Below, piece after piece: positions 3,204-61,907 of a stretch of DNA of 64,000 bases. Made by a program: the position numbers and the translations under genes. Source of the stretch: an uncultured bacterium (lineage in GTDB: Bacteria; Patescibacteriota; Minisyncoccia; Phycocordibacterales; UBA11359); assembly GCA_903831815.1 (NCBI GenBank), contig CAIKZC010000001.1, positions 20,188-84,187 of the forward strand, written 5' to 3'. Position 1 is the stretch's first letter, and every line of letters begins with the position of its first letter. The notes under the pieces are model-generated. The model did no database searches. It was not told where the DNA came from and saw nothing but the letters and a program-made list of their open reading frames with translations.

Positions 3204-4232
3204 TTATTTTATCGACTCAGCTGTTTTAATAACGTGATCGACCAAAGTGTATGTATACCCCATTTCGTTGTCGTACCAAGCGAAGACTTTGACGAGATTG
3301 CCGCCAACGACGCGAGTGAGAGCGAGGTCTGCGAGCGAAGCATATTTGCAACCGACAATGTCTGATGAAACGAGCGGTTCTTCAGTCACAGAAAATACTT
3401 TACTCCAACGATCGGATTTAGCCGCTTCTTTCAAAATATTATTTACTTCCTCGGCAGTCGTGTCTCGTTTTGCGATAAAAGTAATATCAACGATCGAGCC
3501 AACTACGACAGGCACGCGAATTGAAACACCATCAAACTTGCCTTTCAAATCAGTCAAAACTTTGGTCACAGCGATGGCGGCACCGGTCGATGAAGGCACG
3601 ATGTTTTGCGCTGCGGCACGTCCTTCACGAAAATCTTTTTTGTTTGGTCCATCCACAATTCCCTGACTGGCCGTGTAAGCATGCACAGTGTTAAGCAAAG
3701 CTTTTTCAATTCCAATTTTTTCGTGCAAAATAGCGATAAGTGGTGATCCGGCATTGGTCGTGCAAGAAGCGTTTGAACTGATCACGCAATTTGCCAAAGT
3801 ATCATCATTGATTCCCATGAGCACGGTGCCACCAGCAATGCCTGGCAAAGGTTCGTCTTTGACCGGTGCACTGATCACAACTTTTTTAGCTCCGGCAGTA
3901 ATGTGAGCTTGAGCTTTTTCATAAGTCGTGAAAAGTCCGGTCGATTCAACCACAACATCGATTCCAAGAGCGCCCCATGGCAATTTAGCCGGATCTTTTT
4001 CACTTAAATATTTTATCGCTTTGCCATCCACCACAATACTGTCGCCTTGTACTTCCACAGAAAAATCGCTCACACCGTAAGCCGTGTCGTATTTCAAAAG
4101 ATAAGCAATGCTTTTGATGTCACCAAGATCATTCATGGCCACGATCTCAATTTCCGGATGTTGACGCGCGACTTTTAGAAAAGCTCGCCCGATTCTGCCC
4201 GCACCATTTATCGCCACTTTAATTGTTTTCAT
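3204..4232 (-). CDS. gap: glyceraldehyde-3-phosphate dehydrogenase
   Basis: 342 aa; N-terminal NAD-binding INGAGRIGR motif and catalytic SNASCTTN motif. Confidence 0.9.
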   Translation of the reverse strand: MKTIKVAINGAGRIGRAFLKVARQHPEIEIVAMNDLGDIKSIAYLLKYDTAYGVSDFSVEVQGDSIVVDGKAIKYLSEKDPAKLPWGALGIDVVVESTGLFTTYEKAQAHITAGAKKVVISAPVKDEPLPGIAGGTVLMGINDDTLANCVISSNASCTTNAGSPLIAILHEKIGIEKALLNTVHAYTASQGIVDGPNKKDFREGRAAAQNIVPSSTGAAIAVTKVLTDLKGKFDGVSIRVPVVVGSIVDITFIAKRDTTAEEVNNILKEAAKSDRWSKVFSVTEEPLVSSDIVGCKYASLADLALTRVVGGNLVKVFAWYDNEMGYTYTLVDHVIKTAESIK

Positions 4233-6057: not shown

Positions 6058-7182
6058 TTATTTTAAGCTAGCTTTTTTAGTATCAATAAAAGGATTGAAC
6101 AGATTTGCGAAGATAGCTCCCCAAAGTCCACGACCGGAATATTTTTTGCCATCCTTTTTCAAACCGTCGACAAATTCATCTCTGATACGATCTTTTTCAT
6201 CGTCGTCGAATTTATCCCAAGACTTATGTTTTTTGGAGACATTTTCCTGTATACATTCTTCCCACATTTGATCGACTTTTGGATCAGAAGGAAAAGTATT
6301 TTTCATATCTTTAAATCCTACCCTTTCCACTTTCAAAGATTCACCAAAAATCGCTTTTGATAAAGCTGCTGTCATATCATAATTACCCTTAATAGTTGCA
6401 CTCAATACTGAACCAATATTTTTTTTATGGTTTTCGAGCTCTGCAAGCCAAGCGCCAACTTCATTTTTTTTTGCTTCGAGCGTCTGAACATCTTTACCGG
6501 AACCGCTCCCTGCAAACATGGTATCAAAAAGTCTTCTATACCACCCCAAAAAACCATCTCCCCAAGATGCCCGAACCATTTCTGAAAAAGCTTCTTCACG
6601 TTTGGAATGATCTTTTATCAACATTGCTTGAGCATAAGCAGTTTCATCCCAACCGTTTTCATCGCACATTTTTTTAACCGAATCATCCAATTTTTTTCGA
6701 CTGTCTCCTTCGTCGCTTTGTTTTTGCTCGATAGCCTTTAAAAGTTTCTCAAAGCGTGTCGAATCACTTATCGCAAGTTCATTCAACCTCGAATCAACAA
6801 CATCCTTCATGTTATCCGCTGTAACTTTCCCAAGTAAGGCTTTAAATTCCTGATCATTTTTACCAAGATCGGTAATTAACTCCACAGTTAACTCTTTTTT
6901 AATAGTTTCAACCTGATCCATCTTTTTTTCAAATGCTACTCGTTGCTTTTCAAGACGATCGTGGTCTTCTTGACGGATCTCTGATTTGGCGATCTGATCA
7001 GCGAGCTGTTCGTCCTCTTCTTCCCCAGTATCAACAAGCATTTGAACAAACAAATCACTTTTTTCCTTGTCAGCTAAAATCTCCTTGACTGTCAAAGGTT
7101 CTTTTTCAACTATTCCAGCTTTCGCTTTTTCTTCCTTATCAATCCTCTCTTGCTCCCTTTGGTATGCTTCGGTTATTCCCAT
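6058..7182 (-). CDS. hypothetical K/E-rich coiled-coil protein
   Basis: 374-aa ORF with charged, heptad-like composition; no recognisable catalytic motif. Confidence 0.4.
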   Translation of the reverse strand: MGITEAYQREQERIDKEEKAKAGIVEKEPLTVKEILADKEKSDLFVQMLVDTGEEEDEQLADQIAKSEIRQEDHDRLEKQRVAFEKKMDQVETIKKELTVELITDLGKNDQEFKALLGKVTADNMKDVVDSRLNELAISDSTRFEKLLKAIEQKQSDEGDSRKKLDDSVKKMCDENGWDETAYAQAMLIKDHSKREEAFSEMVRASWGDGFLGWYRRLFDTMFAGSGSGKDVQTLEAKKNEVGAWLAELENHKKNIGSVLSATIKGNYDMTAALSKAIFGESLKVERVGFKDMKNTFPSDPKVDQMWEECIQENVSKKHKSWDKFDDDEKDRIRDEFVDGLKKDGKKYSGRGLWGAIFANLFNPFIDTKKASLK

Positions 7183-7401: not shown

Positions 7402-8109
7402 TTATCCTTGTGTTTGAGGGAGACACATAAACGACTCAAAAACCGGAGTTAAAGAAATGGTGGGTAGTACGGAACTGATTAAAAAGTTTGCAGACTCTTG
7501 CAAATCACCCTTCCCAGAAACCCTAACGGTCAATAAACTGGCACTATTTTTGCTTAATACGGTTGCTTGAAGCACAGGGTTTTTTACATCTGGATTAGAA
7601 CACTCTGTGCATGTTTTTGTACCCGCCACATGAGCAATATAACCATTGGTTAATGTGATTGTTTTATCTAGATCCGGTTTACCAAAACCATACGCAACAA
7701 TGTTATCTTTTGGATAACCCGGCCAACCACACTGTCTTGGGCTATACTGAACAGTAATTGAGTCTGTCTTTGCTTCAAAATTATTCATACCACCATCAAC
7801 AAAGTTCCTTTCCTTGATTACCTCAGGGCCTGCATATTTAAATCCAAATCCATATTGAGTATTTGTATACGTTTTCAAATTACTCATCTGGTTAGACGGC
7901 GTTGTGTTCGTCTTTACAACAGCTTGATTGGTCGGAGTGTTTTGAGTAGTTATAGGCTGAGTGTTTCCGGTCGTTGTCTGAGAACTATTTACTTGTTGTG
8001 TCGTCTGACCATTACTTTGTGAATAAATATAAATACCAAATGCTAACACCAATAAAACAATAATTATTGATAAAACCAACACTGCCGAACCTTTTTGTGT
8101 ATTTTTCAT
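7402..8109 (-). CDS. hypothetical membrane-anchored surface protein with Thr/Gln-rich linker
   Basis: 235 aa: N-terminal TM helix (AVLVLSIIIVLLVLAFGIYIY), a T/Q/N-rich low-complexity linker, then a Cys-containing globular domain. Confidence 0.4.
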   Translation of the reverse strand: MKNTQKGSAVLVLSIIIVLLVLAFGIYIYSQSNGQTTQQVNSSQTTTGNTQPITTQNTPTNQAVVKTNTTPSNQMSNLKTYTNTQYGFGFKYAGPEVIKERNFVDGGMNNFEAKTDSITVQYSPRQCGWPGYPKDNIVAYGFGKPDLDKTITLTNGYIAHVAGTKTCTECSNPDVKNPVLQATVLSKNSASLLTVRVSGKGDLQESANFLISSVLPTISLTPVFESFMCLPQTQG

Positions 8110-8206
8110 ATTGTGTTTAATGGTACAACATATTTTACAAAATGAACAGGTGCGTGGTGTAAATTGAATTTTTAAGGAAAACGAGTAGTATTACGTTCAT
8201 AATTTT

Positions 8207-9124
8207 ATGGATCTGCTTATCGCACAATTAGACCAAAAATACAAAGACTTCTTGCGTAATTTGAACTACAAAGAACCTGCCGATTCTGTAGCTTTTGGCC
8301 ATGCGTATGACTACTTTTGTATCATTGAAAAGCAACCTCGAATAAAAGAAATTATCGAAAACGATAGGAAGGAAATTGGATATAAAAAAGATGCTGTCGT
8401 ATTTAATCATCCTTCAATTGACGAGCAAAAAGACATAATGGACAGAATTGAGTGGAATTCCTTGTCTTTCTGCTATGACGAAATGTCGAGAGATATGTAT
8501 ATTCCTACTCTTAAATACAAAAATTCACTTGATGTACTTACACCGAAAGACATCATCGGCATAACTGAAATCCGCCGAGAAAAGTTTATAAGTTTCATGT
8601 TCTATCTCGTCAAAAAAGTAGGAAAATGGTTTGTAACCGATCGATCAGATTCCGACATTGATAATAGAATTGCTCTAGGCAAAATCGAATACAATTTCAA
8701 GCAAGAAAAATATCAGGTCTATATGAGTCGAATCCACTCAATTCTCATTCCTCAACTTTTAGAAATTCACACCAAGAAACCGATAGATGTGTCTGATCCG
8801 GAAGACCTAAACGGCATTTCTTTCGATAAAGAAAATAGCATTTTAAAAATCGGCGACAAAGAGGTAAAAATTACTTTGAAAAATGATAAAACAAACGGTC
8901 ATTATGTTCTCGAATATCTTTTTGAAAATGGCGTGGAAAATCCAGCCGATTATAAAGACATCATCATATCAAAATTCAAAGGCGACAGGAAAGATAACAT
9001 GTCCATTTATCGAGCTTGCAATGACATCAACAAAAAGGTTTCCAAACAAGCCGGTGTAGGTGAATTTTTGGATATTCACAGCGGAAAAACGGGCTGGGTT
9101 CAGATATATTCTAACTTTCTCTAA
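8207..9124 (+). CDS. hypothetical protein (element-borne)
   Basis: 305-aa ORF, no recognisable motifs; first gene of the plus-strand block. Confidence 0.45.
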   Translation: MDLLIAQLDQKYKDFLRNLNYKEPADSVAFGHAYDYFCIIEKQPRIKEIIENDRKEIGYKKDAVVFNHPSIDEQKDIMDRIEWNSLSFCYDEMSRDMYIPTLKYKNSLDVLTPKDIIGITEIRREKFISFMFYLVKKVGKWFVTDRSDSDIDNRIALGKIEYNFKQEKYQVYMSRIHSILIPQLLEIHTKKPIDVSDPEDLNGISFDKENSILKIGDKEVKITLKNDKTNGHYVLEYLFENGVENPADYKDIIISKFKGDRKDNMSIYRACNDINKKVSKQAGVGEFLDIHSGKTGWVQIYSNFL

Positions 9125-9194
9125 AGTTACCCGTAAAATACGGTAACGCTGAAAATATAAGATTGCCTCGCACAAACAAAGTGCGAGCTTTTGT

Positions 9195-9425
9195 ATGTCT
9201 ACATTTTCAAAACAACTGGTCGATAAATGTATCGAATATTTCAAACGTGTTCATCACACGGATATTTCCGTTGATACAGCCAACGAATACCTGCACTCCT
9301 TTGCCAAACTCTACCTAGCTTTCAATCGACCAAACGGCGGGGGCGGCGCCCGCTCCTTATGGGGCGGCGAGGCCCCGCCGGTGGGGGTGACTCCTAAAGT
9401 TATCCTAGGTGTTAGTAACACCTAG
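9195..9425 (+). CDS. hypothetical small protein (doubtful; 3' half lies in a GC-rich hairpin region)
   Basis: 76-aa ORF. The N-terminal 45 aa look protein-like; the C-terminal part (GGGGARSLWGGEAPPVGV) is encoded by GC-rich hairpins that are more likely a replication origin. Confidence 0.2.
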   Translation: MSTFSKQLVDKCIEYFKRVHHTDISVDTANEYLHSFAKLYLAFNRPNGGGGARSLWGGEAPPVGVTPKVILGVSNT

Positions 9426-9426
9426 G
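9335..9426. promoter_or_regulatory. GC-rich hairpin cluster plus perfect 23-bp palindrome CCTAGGTGTTAgTAACACCTAGG (9404-9426); candidate double-strand origin / recombinase site
   Basis: Seen directly: about 70% GC hairpins (GCGGG..CCCGC, CGGC..GCCG) followed by an 11-bp perfect inverted repeat with a 1-nt spacer, 20 bp upstream of the Rep_trans gene start. Confidence 0.35.
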
Positions 9427-9445
9427 ATACGTTGCAATATACAAC

Positions 9446-10498
9446 ATGATAGATACTGTTAAATTCTTAATACCCATGACTGATCAAACCATAATTGATC
9501 AACTTAAACATACCCTAAAACGCTTTAAAAAAGATGATATGAAAACTGGCGAAATAGAATTTGAGTTTTTTAGCAGTAACATCGAGCTTGGCTCATACCA
9601 CCGAACTGTGGCAATTAAATCAACAGAATTACCACTCGGATTTTTCATTGAATTCTCAGCTCCTAAATATTCTAAGGGTAACAATGTTGAAATGATATAT
9701 CCCCATGAACTGCCGGAAATAGTAGCGAAACTATACGATGAATTATGCACCCACATGAACTACAAGCTCCCTGACTTTAACCTCTGGCCTGTATATCGTT
9801 TAGACGTCTGCTACAACTGGCTTTTCAAAGATGAAAGTGAAGCTATGTATGCCATGAACTTTCTGCGCCGTATCGACTACCCCCGAAAAAAGAAACATAC
9901 CTACGACACATCCGTCATGTACCAAGGTTCTGCCTACACGGTCAAATTCTATTTAAAAGGTGCCGAGTTTAAAGTTAACGATTCCAAGAAAATCGAATTC
10001 AAGCGAGCGGTCAATCTACAATCATGGGCTAACCGGATTGTGCGGTTTGAAGTGAACCTAAAGAAAACATACCTACAACAGACATTTTTAGTGGACAAAG
10101 TATATTTACAAAATATTATTGATGATACTGTTATCGAACAAATCCTAAAATATTATTTAGAAGACAAAGTCTTTAAATATCTCAACATCAACTCCATGAC
10201 GGATGAAAATATCAAGCAAATTCTTTTTGAAAATTTCACTAAGACAAAATCCATGCGACTATATCAATTTTACAAGGGTTTCTTTTTTGATACCGAGATT
10301 AAAGATATGTTAATTTCCGGTGGTCTCAATCGCAGTACCATATACCGTTACAAAACTGATCTGAAGCGTGTCGGGGTTGGTATCTCACTTGAGAAACTAC
10401 CCGAAAGTAAGAATATTTTAGAGCAGTTAGTCATTCCATCCCCAAATTCACAATTTAATTTGATTGATTATGTTGATTATAAAATTTTAGAAGCATAA
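9446..10498 (+). CDS. rolling-circle replication initiator, Rep_trans (pT181 RepC-like) family
   Basis: 350 aa. Three blocks match pT181 RepC motifs: YRLDVCYNW (cf. TRLDLAFDF), YTVKFYLKG (cf. RFIRIYNK) and RIVRFEVNLKK (cf. WRVEIELKR). Confidence 0.55.
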   Translation: MIDTVKFLIPMTDQTIIDQLKHTLKRFKKDDMKTGEIEFEFFSSNIELGSYHRTVAIKSTELPLGFFIEFSAPKYSKGNNVEMIYPHELPEIVAKLYDELCTHMNYKLPDFNLWPVYRLDVCYNWLFKDESEAMYAMNFLRRIDYPRKKKHTYDTSVMYQGSAYTVKFYLKGAEFKVNDSKKIEFKRAVNLQSWANRIVRFEVNLKKTYLQQTFLVDKVYLQNIIDDTVIEQILKYYLEDKVFKYLNINSMTDENIKQILFENFTKTKSMRLYQFYKGFFFDTEIKDMLISGGLNRSTIYRYKTDLKRVGVGISLEKLPESKNILEQLVIPSPNSQFNLIDYVDYKILEA

Positions 10499-10508
10499 TA
10501 TAGCAACC

Positions 10509-11960
10509 ATGAAATACATTCTCTATTGCAGAAAATCAACCGAGTCGGAAGACAGACAGATTCTGTCACTTGATTCTCAAAAAGATGAGCTAACAAAGCT
10601 TGCTACCAATCAAGGTTTTCAAATCGTCAAAACCCTGCAAGAAAGCAAATCAGCTAAAGCACCCGGCAGACCTGTATTCAATGAAATGCTGAAACTAATC
10701 GAGACCGGAAAAGCTGACGCGATTCTGTGTTGGAAAATAGATCGCCTGGCTCGCAACCCAGTGGACGGCGGACAGATACAATGGCTGTTACAAAATAGCA
10801 AAATAAAATGTATTCAAACTTTTGAAAAATGCTACTATCCCAACGACAATGTTCTCCTCATGTCTATCGAACAAGCCATGGCTTCGCAATACATCAGAGA
10901 CTTAAGCACCAACGTCAAACGTGGCAACCGAGCCAAACTCGAAAAAGGTGTCTGGCCAAATCGTCCTCCATTCGGATATGACAATGACCGATTAAACAAA
11001 ACGATAATCGTTGATCAAGAAAATTCAAAATATCTCATTCGGGCTTTTGAACTCTACTCCACCGGCAGTTATGGTTTCAAAGAAATCGGCAACATACTAT
11101 ACAAAGAAGGACTACGAACAAAAACTGGCAAGAAATTCTTTTCTGGCAAAATACATAAATTTATAAGTAACCCATTTTACTATGGTGTCATGCGCATGGA
11201 CGGCAAACTATACAACGGCACTCATACGCCACTCATCTCAAAAGAGTTATTCGATCAAACTCAAGACGTGCTACACAACAGAAACAGACCACGACCTAAA
11301 AATCACTTCTTCCCACTTCGGGGATTTATGTCCTGTGAAGTCTGCGGCTGTTCATTAACCGCTTCGCTTAAAAAAGGTCATCACTATTACTACTGCACCA
11401 ACAGCAAAGGTGTCTGCACCGAACACAAAACCTACATGCGAGAGAGCAAACTATATCCTATCGTGGCTTCACTTTTTGAAAAGCTCAACCTGGATGAAGA
11501 AACTATTGAAATGATGTACCAAGCCGCTAAAGAGGAGACCGGCCACGCCACTGAATACTCAACCACCACTCTTTCTTCCCTTCAAAGTAACTTAAATGCC
11601 CTCACAGCAAAAGAAAGCAAACTACTTGATACTTTGCTCGCTGAACATATTACACAGGAGGTATACCACGACAAGGCTATTGAAATACAGAACGAGAAAG
11701 TCACACTAAAGAAACAAATCGCCGATCTTGAACTGAAAAGCAAAAACATTATTTCCACCTTGGAACCAACCAAAGAAATCTTTTTACGAGCAAGTAGAGC
11801 CAAAAAAGAGTTTATCGCCGGCGATGATTCAAAAAAGCGTGATATAGTAGAAACTATACTTTGGGACCTTTCGATGAAAGAACAGAAAATGGCTCAATAC
11901 AAGTTTAAAAGTCCGTATGCGAGCTTCCTAAAACTGCCTAAAAAAACCCGTCTTTTTTAG
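10509..11960 (+). CDS. large serine recombinase (resolvase/integrase)
   Basis: 483 aa. N-terminal catalytic domain with YCRKSTE (active Ser), central recombinase domain, Cys-rich zinc ribbon (CEVCGCS...YYYCTNSKGVC) and C-terminal coiled coil. Confidence 0.85.
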   Translation: MKYILYCRKSTESEDRQILSLDSQKDELTKLATNQGFQIVKTLQESKSAKAPGRPVFNEMLKLIETGKADAILCWKIDRLARNPVDGGQIQWLLQNSKIKCIQTFEKCYYPNDNVLLMSIEQAMASQYIRDLSTNVKRGNRAKLEKGVWPNRPPFGYDNDRLNKTIIVDQENSKYLIRAFELYSTGSYGFKEIGNILYKEGLRTKTGKKFFSGKIHKFISNPFYYGVMRMDGKLYNGTHTPLISKELFDQTQDVLHNRNRPRPKNHFFPLRGFMSCEVCGCSLTASLKKGHHYYYCTNSKGVCTEHKTYMRESKLYPIVASLFEKLNLDEETIEMMYQAAKEETGHATEYSTTTLSSLQSNLNALTAKESKLLDTLLAEHITQEVYHDKAIEIQNEKVTLKKQIADLELKSKNIISTLEPTKEIFLRASRAKKEFIAGDDSKKRDIVETILWDLSMKEQKMAQYKFKSPYASFLKLPKKTRLF

Positions 11961-11965
11961 AACTG

Positions 11966-12050
11966 CGGAGGGTAGGAGATTCGAACTCCTGAAGGGTTGC
12001 CCCTTACACGCTTTCCAAGCGTGCGTACTAGACCACTATACGAACCCTCC
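11966..12050 (-). tRNA. tRNA-Ser (anticodon GGA), long variable arm
   Basis: Minus-strand cloverleaf: acceptor GGAGGGT/ACCCTCC, anticodon stem CACGC/GCGTG with loop TTGGAAA, long variable arm, T-arm AGGAG-TTCGAAT-CTCCT, discriminator G. Confidence 0.85.
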
Positions 12051-21286: not shown

Positions 21287-21958
21287 ATGCGCCTACTGAT
21301 CGTAGAAAATGACGAGAGTTTGACGGAGCAATTAAAAAAGAAACTTGAGTCGCAATCTTTTGCTGTAGATATTGCCAACAACGGAGATGACGGATCCTAT
21401 ATGGCTAGAGTTAATGATTATGATCTCATCATCTTGAGCGACATTTTACCAAAAAAGATGGGTAAGGAAGTTTGTAAAGACATAAGAGACGCCAACAAAA
21501 CCACTCCAATTATTGTCATATCCGAAACAACGAATATTCAAGAAAAAATTTCTTTTCTACATGAAGGAGCGGATGATCATATCATCAAACCATTTTCCTT
21601 CGATGAAATTCTGGCTCGAATTCAAATAATCCTGCGAAGGCCTCGAATATTGCACAAACCGGTACTGGATATCGACGTCGTTAAATTGGATAGCTACAGC
21701 CAACTGGTGACTCGCAACGAAAAGAGAATTTATCTGACACGAAAGGAGTTCGCATTGCTTGAATATTTGATGCGAAATAAGGGCGCAGTCGTTTCGCGCA
21801 GCATGATCATGGAACATGTTTGGGATGAAGAGACCGATCCGTTTTCCAACACTGTGGAATCGCATATTTTAAATCTACGCAAGAAAATAGACTCGAAACG
21901 CAGGCGTCTAATACACAACGTTCCGGGTCGTGGTTACAAAATTGATGTCTTAAAATAG
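21287..21958 (+). CDS. OmpR/PhoB-family response regulator, orphan, with atypical receiver (Ser at phospho-acceptor position)
   Basis: 223 aa with receiver plus winged-helix (…NVPGRGYKI). Alignment to OmpR places S (YDLIILSDILP) where the phospho-Asp sits (HLMVLDLMLP), and the acidic pocket is E-N-D instead of D-D-D. No histidine kinase in the window. Confidence 0.75.
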   Translation: MRLLIVENDESLTEQLKKKLESQSFAVDIANNGDDGSYMARVNDYDLIILSDILPKKMGKEVCKDIRDANKTTPIIVISETTNIQEKISFLHEGADDHIIKPFSFDEILARIQIILRRPRILHKPVLDIDVVKLDSYSQLVTRNEKRIYLTRKEFALLEYLMRNKGAVVSRSMIMEHVWDEETDPFSNTVESHILNLRKKIDSKRRRLIHNVPGRGYKIDVLK

Positions 21959-25237: not shown

Positions 25238-27061
25238 TTATCCGCCGATTCTGCCACCACCTCCGCCGCCGGTTCTAACACCTCCTCCGCCAATATTAAA
25301 TAAAGAACCGGATCGGGTTGTGTTTGTTGAAGCGCTTGTAGCGCTACCGGTAATAGTTCTAACTACAATCGTATCGCCTTCATTAAGACCGGAAATAATT
25401 TCCGTGTTCGTTTCGTTTGAAATACCGACCTCAACAAATACGGGATGAACTTCAGCTGTTGTGGCTTGAGTTCCGGTATTTGTTCCGTTCTGACCGAACA
25501 TTCTTGCTCCATTTAACCTCCCTCTAGTAGATGATGCCGTCGACGTGCTTGTTGAAGATGTGAATGAAGTTGTTGTTGTCGCTCCGGCAGGCGCATTATT
25601 TGGCACCAAAACGACACTTCGATTTCCGACTTTTGTTATTGCCGTTGTCGGCACCATCAAAACATTTGGATGCGTTTGAGTTGTAATATTTACAGTGGAG
25701 GTCATGCCGGTTTTAAGCTGATTGTTTTGATCAACGATCCCGATCTGAACCGCGTAATTAACGACTCCTTGAGTAACGGTGCCTAGTGGATCCAAATAGC
25801 TTACCGTTCCTTGTAACGTAACATTAGGCAAAGCATCAAACGTTAAAGTCACAGGATCACCAGCCGCAACCTTGGCGGCATCAACTTCATTAAGAGAAAC
25901 ATTAACAACTTTTTGAGAAGTGATAATCGTGCCGAGAACATCTGATGAAGAAACCTGCTGACCGATCTGTGCAGTCAAACCTCCGATCTGTCCGTCAAAC
26001 GGTGCGGTAATAATTCTGCTGGCATAAGTTTGTTGCGCCGTCGCTAGATTGGCTTTGGCATTATCGAGTTGCGCTTGAGCGACCGCTACATCAGCCGGCA
26101 AGGATGTGACCGATTGATTTAAGGAAAGCGACGTACTCTTATATGACTGTAACGCACTCGTTATATCGTTAACTGCCGAATTGGCGGTTGTGCGCGCGAC
26201 TGAAGCTGTGTTTTTGTCCGCAGTTATATTGGAATCTCCGGTTGTAGAAACGCTCTTAGCTTCGTTAGTCAAAAGCATTGTCATGTCATCAAAATAATTT
26301 CTCACCGCAGTAAATTTCGTTATGGCATCATTGGCCAAGGCCACAGGATCTGAACTCGTCAAAATATTCTGACCGATATTTTTTAAAAAATCGAGAGTCG
26401 TGGCTATCCGCGTTCTTTCATCGCTAAGTTGGATCACTGGTGCAGTATCTTTAAAATACACGTCACTTATCGTGATCGTCGGATTGGTGGTTGGATCGGT
26501 GAAAAATGAATCGGTATTAATGTATACGGCGCTGGAAACACTTAGATAATCTGTCTGCAATTTAGTCGAAAGGTTTTGCAATGAATTTTGCAACGAAAGT
26601 TGGGCCGATTGAATTGAAGGATTATTTATCGACGAACCTGTTGCCGAACCGGAAGCACCTGCACCGACCAATTTATCATAATTTGCTTGAGCGCTGGCTA
26701 CGCTTGATCTCGCTTGATTGACAGCTTGAAGAGCGTTTAGACCATCAAGCACCGCGATGACATCGCCGGCTTTAACGGTTTGACCATTTATGACATTTAC
26801 CTTGATAATCTGTCCCAAAGTTTGTGTTTGACCTGTGGTTTTTGGCTTGATTTCTACTTTGCTCAAAGTCGAAACTTGACCCGTTCCGGAAACTGAAACG
26901 ACTAGATCACCTCGTTGAACCTTATTAAAAACATACTGTGTTGGAGTTGAAGAACCTCTAAAAAGAGTAAAAATATAGTATCCGATACCAACTAGAACTA
27001 TCGCGACAACAGTCGAAATTATTTTATGTGCGGCAATATACTTAAATATTTTTTTGGTCAT
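25238..27061 (-). CDS. HlyD/MacA-family periplasmic adaptor with Thr/Ser/Gly-rich C-terminal tail
   Basis: N-terminal TM anchor (MTKKIFKYIAAHKIISTVVAIVLVGIGYYIF), coiled-coil and barrel-sandwich regions, then a low-complexity tail ending GGGGVRTGGGGGGRIGG. Start set at the second Met; the ORF-track start is 27085. Confidence 0.7.
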   Translation of the reverse strand: MTKKIFKYIAAHKIISTVVAIVLVGIGYYIFTLFRGSSTPTQYVFNKVQRGDLVVSVSGTGQVSTLSKVEIKPKTTGQTQTLGQIIKVNVINGQTVKAGDVIAVLDGLNALQAVNQARSSVASAQANYDKLVGAGASGSATGSSINNPSIQSAQLSLQNSLQNLSTKLQTDYLSVSSAVYINTDSFFTDPTTNPTITISDVYFKDTAPVIQLSDERTRIATTLDFLKNIGQNILTSSDPVALANDAITKFTAVRNYFDDMTMLLTNEAKSVSTTGDSNITADKNTASVARTTANSAVNDITSALQSYKSTSLSLNQSVTSLPADVAVAQAQLDNAKANLATAQQTYASRIITAPFDGQIGGLTAQIGQQVSSSDVLGTIITSQKVVNVSLNEVDAAKVAAGDPVTLTFDALPNVTLQGTVSYLDPLGTVTQGVVNYAVQIGIVDQNNQLKTGMTSTVNITTQTHPNVLMVPTTAITKVGNRSVVLVPNNAPAGATTTTSFTSSTSTSTASSTRGRLNGARMFGQNGTNTGTQATTAEVHPVFVEVGISNETNTEIISGLNEGDTIVVRTITGSATSASTNTTRSGSLFNIGGGGVRTGGGGGGRIGG

Positions 27062-27085
27062 AAGGTACACTATCTTAAGATACAT
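27062..27085 (-). promoter_or_regulatory. conserved leader motif ATCTTAAGATAGTG(N3-4)CC(Y)T immediately upstream of start codon (copy 1 of 3)
   Basis: On the coding strand, ...ATCTTAAGATAGTGTACCTT ATG lies directly 5' of the adaptor-gene ATG. Near-identical copies sit at 52268-52287 and 60707-60727. Confidence 0.45.
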
Positions 27086-40326: not shown

Positions 40327-41007
40327 TTATAAGTTGTACTTGCCTTCCTTATCATCACGAATTATCTTGCCGTTTTCCATGGTAATGACGCGGCGTTTCA
40401 AAGAATCGATGACGCCTTTATTGTGAGTAGTTAAAATGACAGTAGTTCCAAGATCGTTGATCTTTTTTAAAATTTGAACGATCTCATAAGTGTTCATTGG
40501 ATCGAGATTTCCGGTAGGTTCGTCTGCAATAATGATATCCGGCTGGGTAACGATTGCTCTCGCAATAGCGACGCGTTGTTTTTCTCCACCGGAAAGTTCG
40601 TGAGGAAAATTCCAGATCTTTTTACTGAGGTCAACGAGTTCCAAAACATGAGGAACATCAGTTTCGATTTCGGATTGCGGACAACCAGCCGCCTCCATCG
40701 CAAACGCAATATTTTCATACACGTTTTTCTTGCTGAGCAACCTAAAATCTTGAAATATCGCGCCCATTCGGCGGCGCAACATATTGAGCTCCCCTCTTTT
40801 AACTTTATGAATGTTGGTCGATCCAAAAAAGACCTTGCCGGATGTCGGCTCCTCCTCGGCCATTAACATTTTGAGCAAAGTTGTTTTACCCGCCCCGGAA
40901 TGACCAACTATGGAAACAAATTCTTTTGGTTCGATGGAAAAAGTCACTTCATCCAGAGCTTTTGAGTCATCCGCGTATATTTTGGTAACCTTATCAAAAT
41001 GGATCAT
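40327..41007 (-). CDS. ftsE: cell-division ATP-binding protein FtsE
   Basis: 226 aa with Walker A (GHSGAGKTT), LSGGEKQR and Walker B ([11 protein letters not shown]). Confidence 0.9.
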
Positions 41008-41033: not shown

Positions 41034-41144
41034 AAGCACTGAAAACACTCTTTTAAGGGCACAGGTAAATTTCCTGCTGGAAATTTCCTTCACACTCCGC
41101 CCGTCGGCGTCCGTGAGTCCCTTAAAAGAGTGTTTTCAGTGCTT
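41034..41144. repeat. 111-bp element with perfect 26-bp terminal inverted repeats (AAGCACTGAAAACACTCTTTTAAGGG ... CCCTTAAAAGAGTGTTTTCAGTGCTT) and inner hairpin AAATTTCC-tgct-GGAAATTT; MITE-like or unusually long terminator between prfB and ftsE
   Basis: Seen directly: the arms at 41034-41059 and 41119-41144 are exact reverse complements; the right arm abuts the prfB stop codon. Confidence 0.5.
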
Positions 41145-42056
41145 CTATAGTTTTTTCTCGGCTTCAATGAATTCGTCTAAATAACCGTCAAAAACTTTGT
41201 CGGGGTTGGAGGTTTCAACATTGGTGCGCAGATCTTTGACCATTTTGTACGGATGAATCACATATGAGCGAATCTGATTCCCCCATTCAATGTCGGTGGT
41301 TTTACTCACATACATGCCACTTTCGGCACTTTTGCGCGCTTCTTCCTCTCGTTTAAAAAGTTTTCCACGCAACATAGCGAGAGCCTTCTCTTTATTCTGA
41401 GCTTGAGAGCGCTCAGACTCCACATGCACCGCAATTTTCGTTGGAATATGTACCAATCGCACCGAAGTCTCTCGCTTGTTCACATTTTGCCCGCCCGGAC
41501 CACTAGAGCGAGCATACCCTATTTCAATATCAGTTTCCGGAATAACAAAATCTGCCGCCGATGATGCCGTATCAAATCTCGGCACAACTTCAACGAGCGA
41601 AAAAGAGGTGTGACGCTGATCCTTGGAATTAAAAGGCGAAATGCGCACGAGCCGGTGCACGCCGGATTCGTTTTTTAACATTCCGTAAGCATTTTTGCCA
41701 TTTATTTCAAAAGCGATATTGCGATAACCGCCGTGATCATTCTTGTGCTCGTGCAACATGTAAATATTCCAACCTTGTCGAGCTGCATACTTTCGATACA
41801 TTTCAAAAAGCATTCGTGAAAAGTCCTCAGCATCATCTCCACCGGCGCCGGAAAAGATCGTGAAAATAGCATCACCCTTGTCGTATTTTTCGGCGCCCAA
41901 AATTTCGTCTTTAAGTTGCGAAATTTCCCGCAACACCGCCTGCGCCGCTGTTTTGTCAGTCCAAAAATCCGCCGCGCCCATCCGCTCTTCCAGTTCACGA
42001 AGCTGTGCCTGCTTGTCTTCCTTTCCTCCTGTATTTTTCGGGTTAATTTCGACCAT
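41145..42056 (-). CDS. prfB: peptide chain release factor 2 (no programmed +1 frameshift site, short N-terminal domain)
   Basis: SPF tripeptide motif (RISPFNSKD) and GGQ (SGPGGQNVNK). Starts MVEINP... in frame (cf. E. coli MFEINP). No CTT TGA C shift site. Confidence 0.85.
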   Translation of the reverse strand: MVEINPKNTGGKEDKQAQLRELEERMGAADFWTDKTAAQAVLREISQLKDEILGAEKYDKGDAIFTIFSGAGGDDAEDFSRMLFEMYRKYAARQGWNIYMLHEHKNDHGGYRNIAFEINGKNAYGMLKNESGVHRLVRISPFNSKDQRHTSFSLVEVVPRFDTASSAADFVIPETDIEIGYARSSGPGGQNVNKRETSVRLVHIPTKIAVHVESERSQAQNKEKALAMLRGKLFKREEEARKSAESGMYVSKTTDIEWGNQIRSYVIHPYKMVKDLRTNVETSNPDKVFDGYLDEFIEAEKKL

Positions 42057-42098
42057 ATATGCAAGTATACCAAAAATAGTCAGTAAATAAAAAAGCAT

Positions 42099-43925: not shown

Positions 43926-43932
43926 TTTAATG

Positions 43933-44006
43933 CGCGCCCGGCCGGACTCGAACCGGTGACCTATCCCGTGACAGGGGATTGTTCTAGCCAACTGAACTAC
44001 GGGCGC
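43933..44006 (-). tRNA. tRNA-Asp (anticodon GTC)
   Basis: Cloverleaf: acceptor GCGCCCG/CGGGCGC, D arm GTTC-AGTTGGCTA-GAAC, anticodon stem ATCCC/GGGAT with loop CTGTCAC, T arm ACCGG-TTCGAGT-CCGGC, discriminator G. Confidence 0.85.
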
Positions 44007-44659
44007 ATTTTTATGAACTTATCGAAAACAAGCTTCTTCCTAGGCAAATACAGCTTGTGAAGCTTATTATACATAATTTTGTATAATTTCAAAGAGTCCA
44101 GAGTACTAAAGCTTAATCTGCTACAATTTTTTGCTTTTACCTTATAAATATATCCACCCAATAAACCTTGTTTTTTGAGACAAAAAAGTAGACTTTTCAG
44201 AAAATCATAACTACAACTAGTAAAAGAAGATTGAATAACATGTGTAGGAGTTTTTCTTTTTTTATTCAGAAAACCGACCCAAACATTTCCGTCACCATCA
44301 AAATAGCCTCGAATAAAATCTCCAGCGTATTCTATAGGAATATGAGGCAATTCCATACGTTTTGCCTTATTCATAATCAACCCAAGAGCCAAAAGATCAG
44401 CAAACAGCTCCTTGCTGCCAATTTGTATATTGTAACAATAACCAGTTTCTGAAACTCGTTTTGCTATTTTGTGATTTGACCCGATTGAAAAACGAATCGA
44501 GCGAATCAATTGGTAGTCTTTTGTATAAATTGAAGTAAAATGCGTCCCTCTTTTTGTTTTAATGATATTTCCATCGGCAAACAAAAAGCCCAAGATATAC
44601 GCCATATCTGATGACCACGTTTTAAAAAAGTTTTTGTTGTATTTTTTATATATTGGCAC
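43997..44659 (-). CDS. LAGLIDADG homing endonuclease, free-standing (two LAGLIDADG motifs)
   Basis: 220 aa with YILGFLFADGNI and IRGYFDGDGNV, the two dodecapeptide motifs of single-chain LAGLIDADG enzymes. Its stop overlaps the first 10 nt of tRNA-Asp. Confidence 0.75.
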   Translation of the reverse strand: MPIYKKYNKNFFKTWSSDMAYILGFLFADGNIIKTKRGTHFTSIYTKDYQLIRSIRFSIGSNHKIAKRVSETGYCYNIQIGSKELFADLLALGLIMNKAKRMELPHIPIEYAGDFIRGYFDGDGNVWVGFLNKKRKTPTHVIQSSFTSCSYDFLKSLLFCLKKQGLLGGYIYKVKAKNCSRLSFSTLDSLKLYKIMYNKLHKLYLPRKKLVFDKFIKMRP

Positions 44660-51649: not shown

Positions 51650-52267
51650 TTATTGTACAGATATTTGACCTGATTGTTCCACAACAACGGATTTATGAAG
51701 GTCGTTTGAAGAATTTTGTAATTTTATTGTGGCCTCACTACCGTTACTAAATCTATGACCTCTGATATTAATTCCTGTACCGGATATTTTAGCTTCAGGA
51801 TCCGGTCGTTTAAATACGATATCGAGAGCATCGAACGTGCATGGATTATTTCCCAAAGAAACATTGTTAGCAATACATAAACTTTCTATATTGATACCCC
51901 GTTGAAATTTATATGTTTGTATGACAGTCTCACCGTTATCATATGATCCGTTATTGTTTTCATCAACAAACAATGTCAATGGCGTGGCTTCAGGAGTTGA
52001 TTTATCAAAATGCACGCCGTAAGCGCTTTGAAAATTGTTGAAGCTATCAGTACTAATTGGCGACATCTGACCGCTTGCTCCTCCCTCTTTTACAGCAACA
52101 CCATAAACTTGCGCCTGACGAATCGTGAGCGAAATATCGTAGGCAAAAGCTCCAAGCAAAGAACTATCGTTAAATTTATTGTAATTAAAAATGACAACGG
52201 AAGTCATGATCAACATAATGGAAATGGTGACCATAAGCTCGATGAGAGTAAATCCTTTTGTTGTCAT
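51650..52267 (-). CDS. prepilin-type minor pilin (GspH/FimT-like)
   Basis: MTTKGFTLIELMVTISIMLIM; start set at the ATG because the ORF-track start is a GTG 3 codons upstream. Preceded by conserved-motif copy 2. Confidence 0.7.
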   Translation of the reverse strand: MTTKGFTLIELMVTISIMLIMTSVVIFNYNKFNDSSLLGAFAYDISLTIRQAQVYGVAVKEGGASGQMSPISTDSFNNFQSAYGVHFDKSTPEATPLTLFVDENNNGSYDNGETVIQTYKFQRGINIESLCIANNVSLGNNPCTFDALDIVFKRPDPEAKISGTGINIRGHRFSNGSEATIKLQNSSNDLHKSVVVEQSGQISVQ

Positions 52268-52287
52268 AGGGTACACTATCTTAAGAT
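52268..52287 (-). promoter_or_regulatory. conserved leader motif ATCTTAAGATAGTG(N3)CCCT upstream of start codon (copy 2 of 3)
   Basis: Coding strand: cATCTTAAGATAGTGTACCCT ATG, directly 5' of the minor pilin start, in the 20-nt gap after pilD. Confidence 0.45.
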
Positions 52288-52288
52288 G

Positions 52289-53098
52289 TTATAAGAACGA
52301 GCCGACCAAAAGCAAATTGAAACCGGAAAAGAAGACGAATAAAACTCCGAAAATGAGGAATGGAGCAAATGGAAGCTCACTCTTCATTGTAAGGCTATTT
52401 CGGGCAAAAAACAATCCGATACAAGTGCGAGAAAACCAAGCTGAATCTGAGATTTTTTGAAGCAAGAGGTAGGCTAAACCGAATATGGCACCAGTCCAGA
52501 AACCGATGATAATAGCCGATAAACCGAGTGAAAGTCCAAGGTAGGCACCGATTCCGATAGCTAATTTACCGTCACCTAGGCCAATCCAACGACCGTTGGA
52601 AACTTTCCAGAGCAAATAAAAAGGTAAGAACAAAATACCTCCGGCCAAAAAATTCCAGATCAGAAAACTTCCGCCATATAGTAGCGGCGCCAATAATTTT
52701 GCGAGGCCAGCTATTACAAACAACGTTACTAATCCGTCCGGGATGATCTTGTGTCGAATATCATAAACCGTCATCACCACGAGCACCCCCACCACAACCA
52801 AATCAAAGAAAAGTGCAATCGAAAGACCGTCAACACTATAAACCGCCAAAAATAAAATAGCGGTAATGAGTTCGATGATCGGATATTGCCAAGAAATCTT
52901 ACTTTTGCAAGTACGACAACGTCCGCGAAAAGTCAAAAAACTCGCAACCGGGATCATGTCGAACCACTGCAGACGTCGACCGCAAGAAAAACATTGTGAG
53001 CGACCATTGATAGACATGCCAGTGTTGTATCGATAGATCACAACATTGAGAAAACTGCCGATACACGCTCCGAGCAAAAAGAAAAAAAGTGAAAACAT
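52289..53098 (-). CDS. pilD: prepilin peptidase (A24 family, PilD)
   Basis: 269 aa with the N-terminal zinc-binding CxxC...CxxC (CFSCGRRL...CRTCKSKI), about 8 TM helices and the catalytic Asp region of A24 peptidases. Confidence 0.85.
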   Translation of the reverse strand: MFSLFFFLLGACIGSFLNVVIYRYNTGMSINGRSQCFSCGRRLQWFDMIPVASFLTFRGRCRTCKSKISWQYPIIELITAILFLAVYSVDGLSIALFFDLVVVGVLVVMTVYDIRHKIIPDGLVTLFVIAGLAKLLAPLLYGGSFLIWNFLAGGILFLPFYLLWKVSNGRWIGLGDGKLAIGIGAYLGLSLGLSAIIIGFWTGAIFGLAYLLLQKISDSAWFSRTCIGLFFARNSLTMKSELPFAPFLIFGVLFVFFSGFNLLLVGSFL

Positions 53099-59543: not shown

Positions 59544-60125
59544 TTATTTTGAATTTAATGTTGTTGCCGATATCGGATTTAACCAAAAAGCATTGACACC
59601 TAGATAAACTCTGTATCGATCGGGATTTTTGTTATCAGCCGTGAACGAAATCGATTTAATCTCGACGATACGCAAACTTTGTTCCAAATCTTTCAAAAAC
59701 GAGATCAGATTTTCGTAAGTTGTGCTGACGGAAAAAGAAAGTGCCATTTGTCCATAAGGTTTATTGGAAGAACCGATCGTTTTTGTCGTACTCGTTTTTT
59801 GATTTTGATCAGCCACGGATATATCTTGAACCGAAATACTATATCGCGATGCGATGCCTTGAATATCCAAAAACCATCGAATATTATCTACGTTATCCGG
59901 CAAAAGTTTTTGCAATTTAGCGAGATCGGCTTGATTAAAAGAATTTTCCGTGTCAACCAATTTTGCTTTTGTCGTTTCAAGTGTGGCGACGCTGGCCAAT
60001 GCACTATCAGAATCTTTTGATTGCGCCATCAAACCTTTTACGATTGTATACTGTGGATTGACCCACATGAAAAATCCGGCGATGGAAATAATGATCAGAA
60101 AGATTGGTAAAAGTGCTCGGTTCAT
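59544..60125 (-). CDS. pilO: type IV pilus assembly protein PilO-like
   Basis: 193 aa: N-terminal TM helix, coiled coil, C-terminal ferredoxin-like region; overlaps pilN by 4 bp. Confidence 0.6.
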   Translation of the reverse strand: MNRALLPIFLIIISIAGFFMWVNPQYTIVKGLMAQSKDSDSALASVATLETTKAKLVDTENSFNQADLAKLQKLLPDNVDNIRWFLDIQGIASRYSISVQDISVADQNQKTSTTKTIGSSNKPYGQMALSFSVSTTYENLISFLKDLEQSLRIVEIKSISFTADNKNPDRYRVYLGVNAFWLNPISATTLNSK

Positions 60126-60706
60126 ATATTTGTAGTGTTATATTTAATGACCGACTGATCTATCGTAGCGGTAAATTTAAAAAGGACACCACCGTCAACA
60201 TCAAGCCCTAAGTTCGAGAAAACTTGATTTTGCAAATATGGTTTAGCTGAAAACGTATCCGATTGCAAAGCAACAGAAGCAAAGTTGGGAGCTTTGCCGC
60301 CGAGCGATAATGTCAACTTTCCTGTGTCGTCAGAAGTATATTTAAGATCGGTAAATTGAACAGACTGAACTGTGTTATTGGCTATAAGATCGAGCAACGT
60401 AGAAACCGCGCGGTGATTATCCAAAAGCGCATTAGCCGCTTGCATTCTTGAATTCAACTGAACGAAATGATCAATCGAAGAGACGTCGAAAGATTTAATG
60501 CGATTGGTCAATTCGGCATTTTTAGAAGCTATCGATTTTGCGAGAAAACCCTGATACAAAAATACTCCAACGGATGCGAGAGCGACGATGATGAAAATGA
60601 ACCAAGCCAAAACTGAAAATAAACTTACAGAAACCGGAGCTTTTTTGGCTTTGTTTTCTACAAGCGGTTGTTTGGGAATGAATGATGTTTGCAATTTTCC
60701 TTCCAT
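60122..60706 (-). CDS. pilN: type IV pilus assembly protein PilN-like
   Basis: 194 aa with a single TM helix after a short cytoplasmic N-terminus (typical PilN); preceded by conserved-motif copy 3. Confidence 0.6.
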   Translation of the reverse strand: MEGKLQTSFIPKQPLVENKAKKAPVSVSLFSVLAWFIFIIVALASVGVFLYQGFLAKSIASKNAELTNRIKSFDVSSIDHFVQLNSRMQAANALLDNHRAVSTLLDLIANNTVQSVQFTDLKYTSDDTGKLTLSLGGKAPNFASVALQSDTFSAKPYLQNQVFSNLGLDVDGGVLFKFTATIDQSVIKYNTTNI

Positions 60707-60727
60707 AGGTTTTCACTATCTTAAGAT
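60707..60727 (-). promoter_or_regulatory. conserved leader motif ATCTTAAGATAGTG(N4)CCT upstream of start codon (copy 3 of 3)
   Basis: Coding strand: tATCTTAAGATAGTGAAAACCT ATG, directly 5' of pilN in the 94-nt pilM-pilN gap. Confidence 0.45.
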
Positions 60728-60800
60728 AATTTTTTGTCTAGGTACTATTGTTTATTATTATACTACATCCAGTTTGCAATGAGAACATACTTTATCCACA

Positions 60801-61907
60801 CTACGACTCCTGAAGCATACGGAGTGCCGCACCGACCGCTACAGAAAATTCCGGATTGGCTGTTTTTAGGACGTCTCGTAGAAATGCCGGCGCCTCGACT
60901 TTCGAAAATGGATCACCGAGTGTAACGTCGATCTGAAAACTGCGCTTTGCAGTCGGCAAAATACCCTTTAACAACGATCCTCCACCGATCAAAATGACCT
61001 GATCGACGGTTTTGGCATATTTCTTTTCATAACTCAACAAAACTTGATTGGCTTCAGAGAAAATATAATCAAGAGTAATCGCGATTATACCAATAATATT
61101 TCTATCGGATTGCGTGGAAGAAATATCCGTCGAACGTTTCAAATTTTCCGCTTCAACAAAAGAAATGCTGTTGGCATTTGAAATAGCCAAAGTGATATCT
61201 TGCGAGCCACGATTAACTAGATGCGAATTTTTGATAACTCCTCGCTCGACAACATATAATTTTGTCGTTCCGGCGCCGATATCCACTATCATGGCTGATT
61301 TGGAATTTTGATCGAGCAACGCTCGTATAGTACTGAACATTTCTATCTCATAAAAAGCGGCGTTGAGATTGGTTTTGGCTCCGATTTCTTGGTATTTGGT
61401 GATCGTATCGTTGTGAATAGCCACGACCATAACATCGGTTTTCTCCGTTTTTATTTCATTTTCAGCTTGAAACATTTTGGCTTCTTTAGGAACAATGGAC
61501 CAGTCGAGCGATACTTCCGAGATCGGTACGGGAATATATTTGCGGGCTTCGATCGGGATCATTTGAGCAAGTTGTTTCTGATCGGACGTCGGCATTTCAA
61601 TCAGCGAAACAAGGCTTGCAACAAAAGGAATAGCCACAGCCGCACGTTTCGCCGTCACTGATGATTCTCGACAGAGGTCAATCAAAGCTTCGGCGATTTT
61701 ATCCGGCGGCAAGTTCATCGCCTTCCCCATTTCTTTTCCATCATATGGGGCAAGGGCAATTTCACCGTAAGTTTCAAGAACGGCACGGTCGTGTTTACGA
61801 GTTAGTTGAACAACTTTTATAGAAGAAGCGCCAATATCCACACCCAAAAAACTCTGGACCTTTGGAGGAAACAAATTTTTATAAAAATTTGATATGGAAA
61901 ATGCCAT
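60801..61907 (-). CDS. pilM: type IV pilus assembly protein PilM (actin-like ATPase)
   Basis: 368 aa with actin/FtsA-like phosphate-binding motifs (GVDIGASSIKVV, DIGAGTT). Confidence 0.8.
   Translation of the reverse strand: MAFSISNFYKNLFPPKVQSFLGVDIGASSIKVVQLTRKHDRAVLETYGEIALAPYDGKEMGKAMNLPPDKIAEALIDLCRESSVTAKRAAVAIPFVASLVSLIEMPTSDQKQLAQMIPIEARKYIPVPISEVSLDWSIVPKEAKMFQAENEIKTEKTDVMVVAIHNDTITKYQEIGAKTNLNAAFYEIEMFSTIRALLDQNSKSAMIVDIGAGTTKLYVVERGVIKNSHLVNRGSQDITLAISNANSISFVEAENLKRSTDISSTQSDRNIIGIIAITLDYIFSEANQVLLSYEKKYAKTVDQVILIGGGSLLKGILPTAKRSFQIDVTLGDPFSKVEAPAFLRDVLKTANPEFSVAVGAALRMLQES

Follow-up and report, generated by a model that had tools for sequence, protein, structure and literature searches.

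A probable ultra-small, non-coding insertion element flush with start codons in Patescibacteria of the Parcubacteria group

Why should one 14-mer, ATCTTAAGATAGTG, stand three times shortly before a start codon within a single stretch of bacterial DNA, and does the repetition speak of shared control or of something that moves? In the 64-kb window, by which is meant the whole stretch analysed (64,000 nucleotides), a pattern search gives three exact matches, all on the minus strand, at 27081-27068, 52287-52274 and 60727-60714. What follows the 14-mer is TACCTT in the first copy, TACCCT in the second and AAAACCT in the third, and then, directly, the ATGs at 27061, 52267 and 60706 respectively. The first-pass annotation of this DNA had picked out the motif at these three start codons, and the triplicate is indeed exact: with up to one mismatch allowed there are three matches where dinucleotide-preserving shuffles lead one to expect 0.01, and none of 100 shuffles reached three. 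Palindromic self-overlaps apart, the 64-kb window has no copies with one or two mismatches. That ATCTTAAGAT is a perfect palindrome, of 10 bp, as had also been noticed, is borne out. The answer that we favour, and think probably right, is that the motif is a modular insertion element, ultra-small and non-coding, that is scattered among Patescibacteria of the Parcubacteria group.

The first copy (ATCTTAAGATAGTGTACCTT, 20 nt, positions 27062-27081, minus strand) is flush with the start codon (27059-27061, minus strand) of an HlyD/MacA-like adaptor gene that spans 25238-27061; Pfam sees an HlyD-type adaptor, then an ABC ATPase and a MacB permease. Gene callers wrongly prolong this ORF through the copy to an ATG at 27085, adding eight codons and giving a 615-residue product (P0121) with the N-terminus MYLKIVYLM..., and the homologous N-terminus of a relative (L154) starts at the equivalent of 27061. 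With the element-encoded N-terminal extension LKIVYP as a protein probe, only the window's own protein was found among 240 homologs. A candidate half-copy 20 nt upstream of the first copy, TAGTGTCCCTA, was set aside as chance, as it aligns to ordinary spacer in L154 and as the loose pattern that finds it occurs about once per shuffled window.

The second copy (ATCTTAAGATAGTGTACCCT, 20 nt, 52268-52287, minus strand) fills the junction between pilD, which encodes a prepilin peptidase, and a pseudopilin gene. The pilD stop codon TAA (52289-52291, minus strand) is 1 nt upstream, so that the junction reads TAA-C-element-ATG, and the pseudopilin ATG (52265-52267, minus strand) is 21 nt past that stop. 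The protein begins MTTKG^FTLIE..., with the N_methyl motif of Pfam at residues 4-25; gene callers mis-call it from an internal GTG. The third copy (ATCTTAAGATAGTGAAAACCT, 21 nt, 60707-60727, minus strand) forms the final 21 nt of the spacer between pilM and pilN, the start codon of the latter (Pfam PilN) being at 60704-60706 on the minus strand and the first 30 nt of its coding sequence being conserved in all relatives. Some 30 nt upstream of this copy is a sigma-70-like promoter, TTCTCA-17-TATAAT (60757-60785, minus strand; 10 of 12 consensus matches). A homologous TATACT/TATAAT box is found in relatives that lack the element, which makes the promoter older than the insertion and places the third copy inside the pilN 5′ UTR. 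A 15-mer common to this copy and to position 29820 is in coding sequence there and at chance level.

What stands at these places in relatives? Orthologous loci of four sister lineages were compared, their PilM proteins being 78–84.5% identical to that of the window and to one another, i.e., the lineages are approximately equidistant, in a star-like relationship. In the window the pilM-pilN spacer reads ...GACAAAAAATT, then ATCTTAAGATAGTGAAAACCT, then ATGGAAGG. In all four sisters (L125, L127, L152 and L006) the site is empty and of the form ...AAAAT(T/C)^ATGGAAGG, where ^ marks the junction, as it does hereafter: ...GACAAAAATTC^ATGGAAGG in L127, ...CACAAAATATT^ATGG in L125, ...GACAAAAATAAT^ATGG in L152 and ...AAAAAAAAT^ATGG in L006. 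The last of these is a mosaic, 100% identical to the window from the ATG on and 68% upstream, and so represents only another lineage's empty spacer and not an empty site in the same strain. At the pilD-pseudopilin junction, TTATAAC, 20 nt and ATG in the window correspond to TTATAAC^ATG in both L125 and L127. The spacer between the DHODH gene and the adaptor gene, which in the window is ...AACATATGT, 20 nt and ATGACC, is empty in L154, where it reads ...TTAATAATAT^ATGATT and the spacer end is CATTAATAATAT^ATG. All three window copies are thus shown to be lineage-specific insertions of exactly 20–21 nt, flush with the ATG in spacers that are otherwise alignable. With the lineages about equidistant, parsimony favours one gain at each site over precise loss repeated from lineage to lineage; were precise excision in the relatives nevertheless preferred to gain, a mobile element would be equally implied.

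How far does the family extend? In a first scan 185,579 species genomes were searched for the motif with N3-4-CYT-DTG behind it, and 12 loci were returned. The Taylorbacteria MAG UBA11359 accounts for five, each on a different contig; a Moraniibacteriota MAG has one, in front of gyrB, and a Magasanikbacteria MAG has two on one contig. The remaining five, single matches in unrelated taxa, are followed by no gene and have the look of chance matches. By NCBI ranks Taylorbacteria, Moraniibacteriota and Magasanikbacteria are separate candidate phyla of the Parcubacteria group. A second scan, of JGI metagenomes with the ATG-agnostic pattern ATCTTAAGATAGTGTN1-2CCCT, added ten more independent CPR-like copies, and with those of the window there are 21 independent copies. 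As both large scans required the exact 14-mer, they underestimate sequence variation and the number of copies that truly exist. Forward copies stand before unrelated genes, which encode 6PGDH, an S41 protease, GyrB, ribosomal protein S17 (rpsQ), a Mur ligase (murF), a large serine recombinase, sugar-modifying enzymes and small membrane proteins. The family is, then, present in at least three candidate phyla, beside unrelated genes. Even between the window species and UBA11359 the genes that carry the element are entirely different. Copy number is low, three per 64 kb in the window and at least five in the fragmented UBA11359 MAG, which sets the element apart from most repeat families. Among viral contigs (IMG/VR) there were 119 chance matches to the 14-mer, none with the tail; a BLAST search of plasmid and phage collections with the long form described below gave no match. 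A viral origin was dropped; a right-half pattern matched only a coding sequence, and an 18-bp palindrome in L042 is unrelated to the element. In the literature searched, neither the sequence of the element nor any account of repeats in Patescibacteria was found.

Comparison of the 21 copies reveals a modular architecture, (ATCTT)1-3 followed by one or two AAG-N-TAGTG-T-N(1-2)-CCCT units (AAGNTAGTG-T-N-CCCT). The short form has 20 nt in 15 copies, 21 nt in five and 19 nt in one; the two-unit long form, ATCTTAAGATAGTGTNCCCT-AAGCTAGTGTNNCCNT-ATG, is about 41 nt and occurs in L142, L145 and L151. In every copy the CCCT end is against an ORF boundary and the ATCTT end toward AT-rich spacer. The base flanking the 5′ end is T in 18 of the 21 copies (TT in 13), and the 3′ junction is ...CC(C)T(T)^A in every one, so that the element sits at a T^A step, in a few copies at C^A or A^A. 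In 18 of 21 copies the sequence allows a reading with TA on both sides of the element, the left side of the other three being CA or AA, and at an empty site T^A or C^A stands once; on the strength of these flanks a TA may be duplicated at insertion. An ATG follows immediately in 14 of 21 copies and after the second unit in three more; among the 11 copies found without an ATG having been demanded, seven adjoin one. Forward copies have T^ATG(A/G) as their boundary, with the element reading toward the gene. Four copies are inverted with respect to the neighbouring gene and lie inside its stop codon, and cutting 20 nt out of such copies restores the T^AA stops of the genes for S11, L36 and S7. With an inverted copy in place the gene end becomes TAG-GGN-ACA-CTA-TCT-TAA, a double stop whose TAG comes from the ...CCCTA end. 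One copy (L143) lies between a gene end and a hairpin with T-run, with no gene behind it. Two frames of the element have stop codons and the third continues into the ATG.

The termini of the element, TCTTAAG... and ...GTNCCC, are non-complementary, i.e., there are no terminal inverted repeats, only the internal 10-bp palindrome. A suggestion that it could be a structured translational element is refuted by folding, z being around zero: the minimum free energies of six copies lie between -1 and -5 kcal/mol and their z-scores, relative to shuffles, between -0.7 and +0.9. A search of the window and 22 related loci with Rfam returned just tRNAs and one tmRNA.

Gain and loss can also be followed away from the window. 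At the murF locus L137 has TGTTACAATCAAAAT^ATG, and immediately before that ATG its ortholog L142 has the 41-nt long form; what L137 has instead is a decayed copy, inverted, in the stop codon upstream. The occupied sites vary among sister species. This is the behaviour of a dispersed family whose 20-nt insertions have precise bounds, keep one polarity at ORF boundaries and come and go rapidly among sister species. The first-pass annotation had set its regulatory proposal against a dispersed repeat family with random placement. A dispersed family is what was found; the placement is far from random.

Is the placement due to function, or to the target? Three copies (in L131, L145 and L148) are followed by ATGAA where no gene starts. 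The frame opened by the ATG is 30 codons in L131, four in L145 and nine in L148, where the gene for RNase HII starts 13 nt on in another frame. Such non-gene ATGAA sites speak for targeting by sequence as well as any selection for function. A plain preference for T^A fails to explain the placement, as only 28 of the 1284 oriented T^A junctions that touch non-coding DNA in the window are at start codons. Among T^ATGA sites touching non-coding DNA in the window, 15 of 25 are real starts, so a T^ATGA preference together with loss of insertions that disrupt coding can explain it. The element would spread by a cut-or-copy-and-insert process whose target is approximately (A/T-rich)T^ATG(A/G), and a TAA stop with a T-rich spacer would present the same T^A step on the other strand. 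Selection against disruption of coding would leave survivors mainly at true start codons. Once inserted, the element would merely be the last 20 nt of a leader or intercistronic spacer, something that a genome free of Shine-Dalgarno (SD) sequences would evidently tolerate even before essential genes, and any effect on expression would be a by-product, e.g., of the weak -10-like TAAGAT or GATAGT 6–11 nt before the ATG, and the element would define no regulon of pilus and efflux genes.

The style of gene expression in the host bears on this. Homologs of PilM and of the adaptor place the window in Patescibacteria, near 'Candidatus Taylorbacteria'. (Pfam also identifies in the window a serine recombinase and a rolling-circle Rep of a probable prophage, and a LAGLIDADG ORF.) Of 62 genes no more than 2 have an SD-like tetramer upstream. 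Some ten genes are preceded, at 6–9 nt from the ATG, by a TATAAT-like hexamer, often with TGn, an architecture of the leaderless type. The earlier remark that the motif has no SD core was correct, GGAG, GAGG and AGGA being absent from the window copies of the element; since it is shared by nearly all genes there, the missing AGGAGG is a genome-wide property and not one specific to the motif.

Could the element then be a portable promoter? Its -10-like hexamer, pyrimidine tract and T-A-T would direct transcription from, or just before, the A of the ATG to give leaderless or near-leaderless mRNAs, and its copies would include internal promoters in pilus and ribosomal protein operons. We judge this unlikely. 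The SD-poor host, with its ten or so genes of leaderless type, is one in which it would be at home, and the murF ortholog of L137 is of just that type, having TGTTACAAT-CAAAAT-ATG as its promoter. Through the variable spacer GATAGT stays 6–8 nt from the ATG in 21 of 21 copies, and the invariant 0-nt spacing between CCCT and ATG fits a fixed start site; this spacing, and the rule that CCCT faces the ORF, are also to be expected from a fixed-distance promoter or from a processing site. Promoters on small repeats have a precedent in the Correia MITEs (PMC10969869). Against this, GATAGT (6–8 nt) and TAAGAT (9–11 nt) match at only four of six positions, have no TGn and no -35, and a consensus scan calls no two-hexamer promoter that uses the element. 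Sites 1 and 3 already have an upstream promoter of their own, the ATG-proximal unit of the long form reads GCTAGT, and about one copy in four either stands inverted at a gene end or has no gene after it. Nor would a -10 alone account for the invariance of ATCTTAA.

A role in translation initiation is, to our mind, improbable. On this proposal the unit AAGAUAGUG would stand in for an SD by pairing with the ribosome, either at a 16S rRNA tail of altered sequence or elsewhere; in an alternative version the element would mark an RNase cut that yields a leaderless 5′-AUG. TAAGATAGTG does resemble the ideal TAAGGAGGTG, from which it differs by ATA in place of the core GAG, and it stands at SD distance, 5–7 nt separating GTG and ATG as for an SD. 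The genome is essentially without canonical SDs, an unstructured element would favour initiation, and the element is tolerated directly before the essential murF, gyrB and rpsQ. However, the anti-SD is almost universally CCUCC, some 5% of genes carry the element and their orthologs manage without it, a second tandem unit is unexpected for an SD, and neither inverted copies at stop codons nor copies before non-genes would serve initiation.

The proposal with which the locus was first presented, that an operator unites pilus and efflux genes in a regulon, we consider very improbable. A dimeric regulator would bind (T)ATCTTAAGAT(A), a palindrome of 10–12 bp, and co-control the two sets by occluding the gene start. 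The palindrome is certainly perfect, reaches 12 bp where the 5′ flank is T (18 of 21 copies), overlaps the initiation region and is identical across distant lineages. But the sister orthologs of pilN, of the pseudopilin gene and of the adaptor gene are without the motif, and at the orthologous genes of no sister lineage is the site conserved. The same module precedes unrelated genes in other Patescibacteria, the gene sets being functionally incoherent and completely different between genomes, and it also occurs inverted at gene ends, in ribosomal protein stop codons, or before no gene. The non-palindromic GTGTNCCCT part is just as conserved, and insertion of a whole 20-nt block is an abnormal origin for a binding site. 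The candidate regulator, of OmpR type, is encoded at 21287, and no link to it was found; OmpR-type regulators bind direct repeats. As for chance similarity, or an artefact of assembly or sequencing such as an adapter, the likelihood is negligible, having in its favour the shortness of the motif and nothing else, and facing three matches against 0.01 expected, consistent placement across 21 copies, the absence of the tail from all 119 chance viral 14-mers, and the same copies in independent assemblies of the same species from other samples (L001-L005) and from several studies, by which recurrence an assembly artefact is excluded.

The insertion element, which we take to be the best explanation, leaves the matter of what moves and maintains it. 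Among the ORFs of the window Pfam offers no candidate transposase, RAYT or other mobilising enzyme, and an element with neither terminal inverted repeats nor a hairpin suits no transposition chemistry that is known. No enzymology is known to us for insertion in register with start and stop codons; were such insertion understood, a novel mode of integration or of gene-boundary marking could come to light. The main argument for constraint, be it function or a conserved template, is near-perfect conservation across phyla, in part an ascertainment effect of requiring the exact 14-mer, together with the near absence of decayed copies in about 200 kb of CPR loci. The scarcity of decayed copies could reflect purifying selection, i.e., function, beyond recent mobility. 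By analogy with Correia elements, a weak promoter or other expression role may have been co-opted at some copies. A bolder proposal, which we put forward tentatively as a possibility, is of an undescribed class of site-specific mobile DNA of some 20 nt in CPR/Patescibacteria, in register with start codons or inverted in TAA stops, that would be moved by an enzyme or an RNA-templated process and would have been co-opted as a portable gene-boundary cassette supplying stops in two frames, a weak -10 or short leader, and start context. If so, such a cassette could rewire expression in genomes that do not have SD-based initiation, and, should it have promoter activity, organisms with leaderless or SD-free initiation would have in it a minimal expression cassette, natural and portable. 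Meanwhile, as the element both misleads gene callers and mimics the signal of a regulon, those annotating Patescibacteria should recognise and mask it.

To which of the known systems is the element akin? The promoters of leaderless genes in Actinobacteria and Deinococcus have a -10 box about 7 nt before the ATG (PMC3160421, PMC6028130). The likeness is in a TAnnnT-like hexamer 6–8 nt before the A of the ATG, with no SD, and the host has such genes; those promoters are, however, ordinary locus-specific sequences, whereas here an identical inserted 20-nt block bears weak hexamers. The extragenic palindromes known as REP, REPIN and BIME are mobilised by RAYT transposases (PMC3116915; PMC3733652), and share with the element a size of 20–40 nt, an extragenic position in operons or at gene ends, occurrence as singlets or doublets, and lineage-specific gain and loss. 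They are imperfect palindromes rich in GC, headed by GTAG or CGTC, with stable hairpins, and are present in hundreds of copies, in contrast to an AT-rich 10-bp palindrome without a loop and without folding above that of shuffles, and no gene for a RAYT (an IS200/IS605-like Y1 transposase) is among the window ORFs.

The Correia elements (NEMIS) of Neisseria are, like the present one, small non-autonomous repeats that for the most part lie a little upstream of genes. TA is the insertion site of Correia elements and is duplicated on insertion; the flanks here are T...A in 18 of 21 copies. They differ in having 100–200 bp or so, 26-bp terminal inverted repeats, IHF sites and susceptibility to RNase III, as against 20 nt, no inverted termini, no stem and a position in register with the ATG. 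Correia elements can bear sigma-70-type promoters and alter expression, including that of an efflux operon (PMC10969869). As to MITEs in general, the multiple dispersed copies whose presence differs between relatives are found here, and the size of roughly 50–500 bp (here 19–21 or about 41 nt) and inverted termini that match those of a parent IS are not.

There remain the small dispersed repeats (SDR) of cyanobacteria, reportedly described by Elhai et al. in 2008 (Genome Res 18:1484; cited in PMC3116915 and PMC2884548) as 'very small mobile repeated elements' of 21–27 nt. They are of the same size class of about 20 nt, dispersed and non-coding, with clean insertions relative to orthologous sequence and possible tandem or modular arrangements. 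Clean insertions of this kind, about 20 nt relative to orthologs, are seen for all three window copies and for the L142/L137 pair. The SDR belong to another phylum and are of other sequence, and several of their families form hairpins and often nest in other repeats, whereas this element is unstructured, low in copy number and flush with start or stop codons, with no nesting seen. Lacking the termini and size of a MITE, and the hairpin and abundance of a REP, the element is placed outside both, among very small dispersed insertion elements; by size and behaviour the SDR are closest to it, and by genomic role the Correia-type MITEs and REP/REPIN. That would put the lower size limit of mobile DNA at about 20 nt in a second and very different lineage, one of streamlined and largely uncultured bacteria in which repeats are thought to be rare.

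In the element, the short dispersed insertion whose CCCT end lies against start or stop codons, one of the reading frames is open and continues into the ATG, and in the 20-nt copies that open frame includes an in-frame GTG. The frame lies open over 27062-27085 at the gene for the HlyD-type adaptor and over 52268-52276 at the pseudopilin gene, and therefore the adaptor is called from ATG 27085 in the public gene calls, which give it 615 aa (P0121) versus the 607 aa expected. The mechanical ORF list places the pseudopilin start at GTG 52276, and it is likely that both starts are mis-annotated. Across the whole window Shine-Dalgarno-like tetramers are found upstream of just 2 of 62 genes, and at several genes (TGn)TATAAT is present 6-9 nt ahead of the ATG, from which pattern it is suggested that Shine-Dalgarno-independent, partly leaderless initiation is widespread in this Taylorbacteria-like genome.

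Ribosomal-protein operons are repeatedly hosts of the element, with 4 of the 21 independent copies, from three different organisms, being at the junctions rpmJ/rpsM, rpsK/rpsD, rpsG/fusA and rpmC/rpsQ (in the loci L140, where the copies are at 6092-6111 and 6950-6969, L144 and L139). Orthologous spacers from two metagenomes carry the short form in one case (L143, 3600-3670, minus strand) and the long form in the other (L145, 578-640). In both, the element has the end of a gene on one side and a terminator-like hairpin on the other, with a TACAAT/TATGAT box upstream of it. As read from the sequence, this arrangement of box, element and hairpin would yield a transcript of ~60 nt that is almost the element alone, and the predicted product may be an sRNA-like by-product.

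What is to be made of the pilN site in L006, a 994-nt contig from sample ERZ27313089 that was compared with window positions 59700-60900? It is a mosaic and lacks the element, its identity to the window being 100% over the 887 nt that begin at the pilN ATG versus 68% in the 105 nt upstream of that codon. Either the contig is an assembly chimera, or it comes from a recombinant strain in which the exchanged tract stops at the boundary of the element.

Window positions 7402-12050 probably hold an inovirus-like element that has integrated into a CPR genome. The region opens with several hypothetical ORFs, after which come genes for a rolling-circle replication protein of filamentous-phage type (9446-10498, Phage_CRI/G2P) and for a large serine recombinase (10509-11960). 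The recombinase gene stops 5 nt short of tRNA-Ser(gga) (11965-12050). A homolog of that recombinase, with ~41% identity in a tblastx match, is encoded by UBA11359 (locus L137), and its ATG is directly abutted by a copy of the dispersed insertion. Elsewhere in the window a free-standing LAGLIDADG-type homing-endonuclease-like ORF (43997-44659, minus strand) has a 3′ end that overlaps tRNA-Asp (43932-44006) by ~10 nt. The region of the gap 3′ end and rpiB 5′ end is duplicated by two direct repeats (1640-1745 versus 2786-2891, 88% identical over 106 nt; 2123-2177 versus 3205-3259, 80% identical over 55 nt) that flank a Fic/DOC gene (2201-2749), and what looks like a segmental duplication or insertion of ~1.1 kb is the putative source of that gene.

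The spacer separating the release-factor gene (41145-42098) from an ftsE-like ABC ATPase gene (40327-41007) holds a perfect inverted repeat with 26-nt arms (41034-41059 and 41119-41144) and a 59-nt loop, and the T-run signature of a terminator is not present at this repeat (41034-41144). Since the release-factor ORF is short, at 317 aa, a frameshift or leader of the prfB type might be involved.
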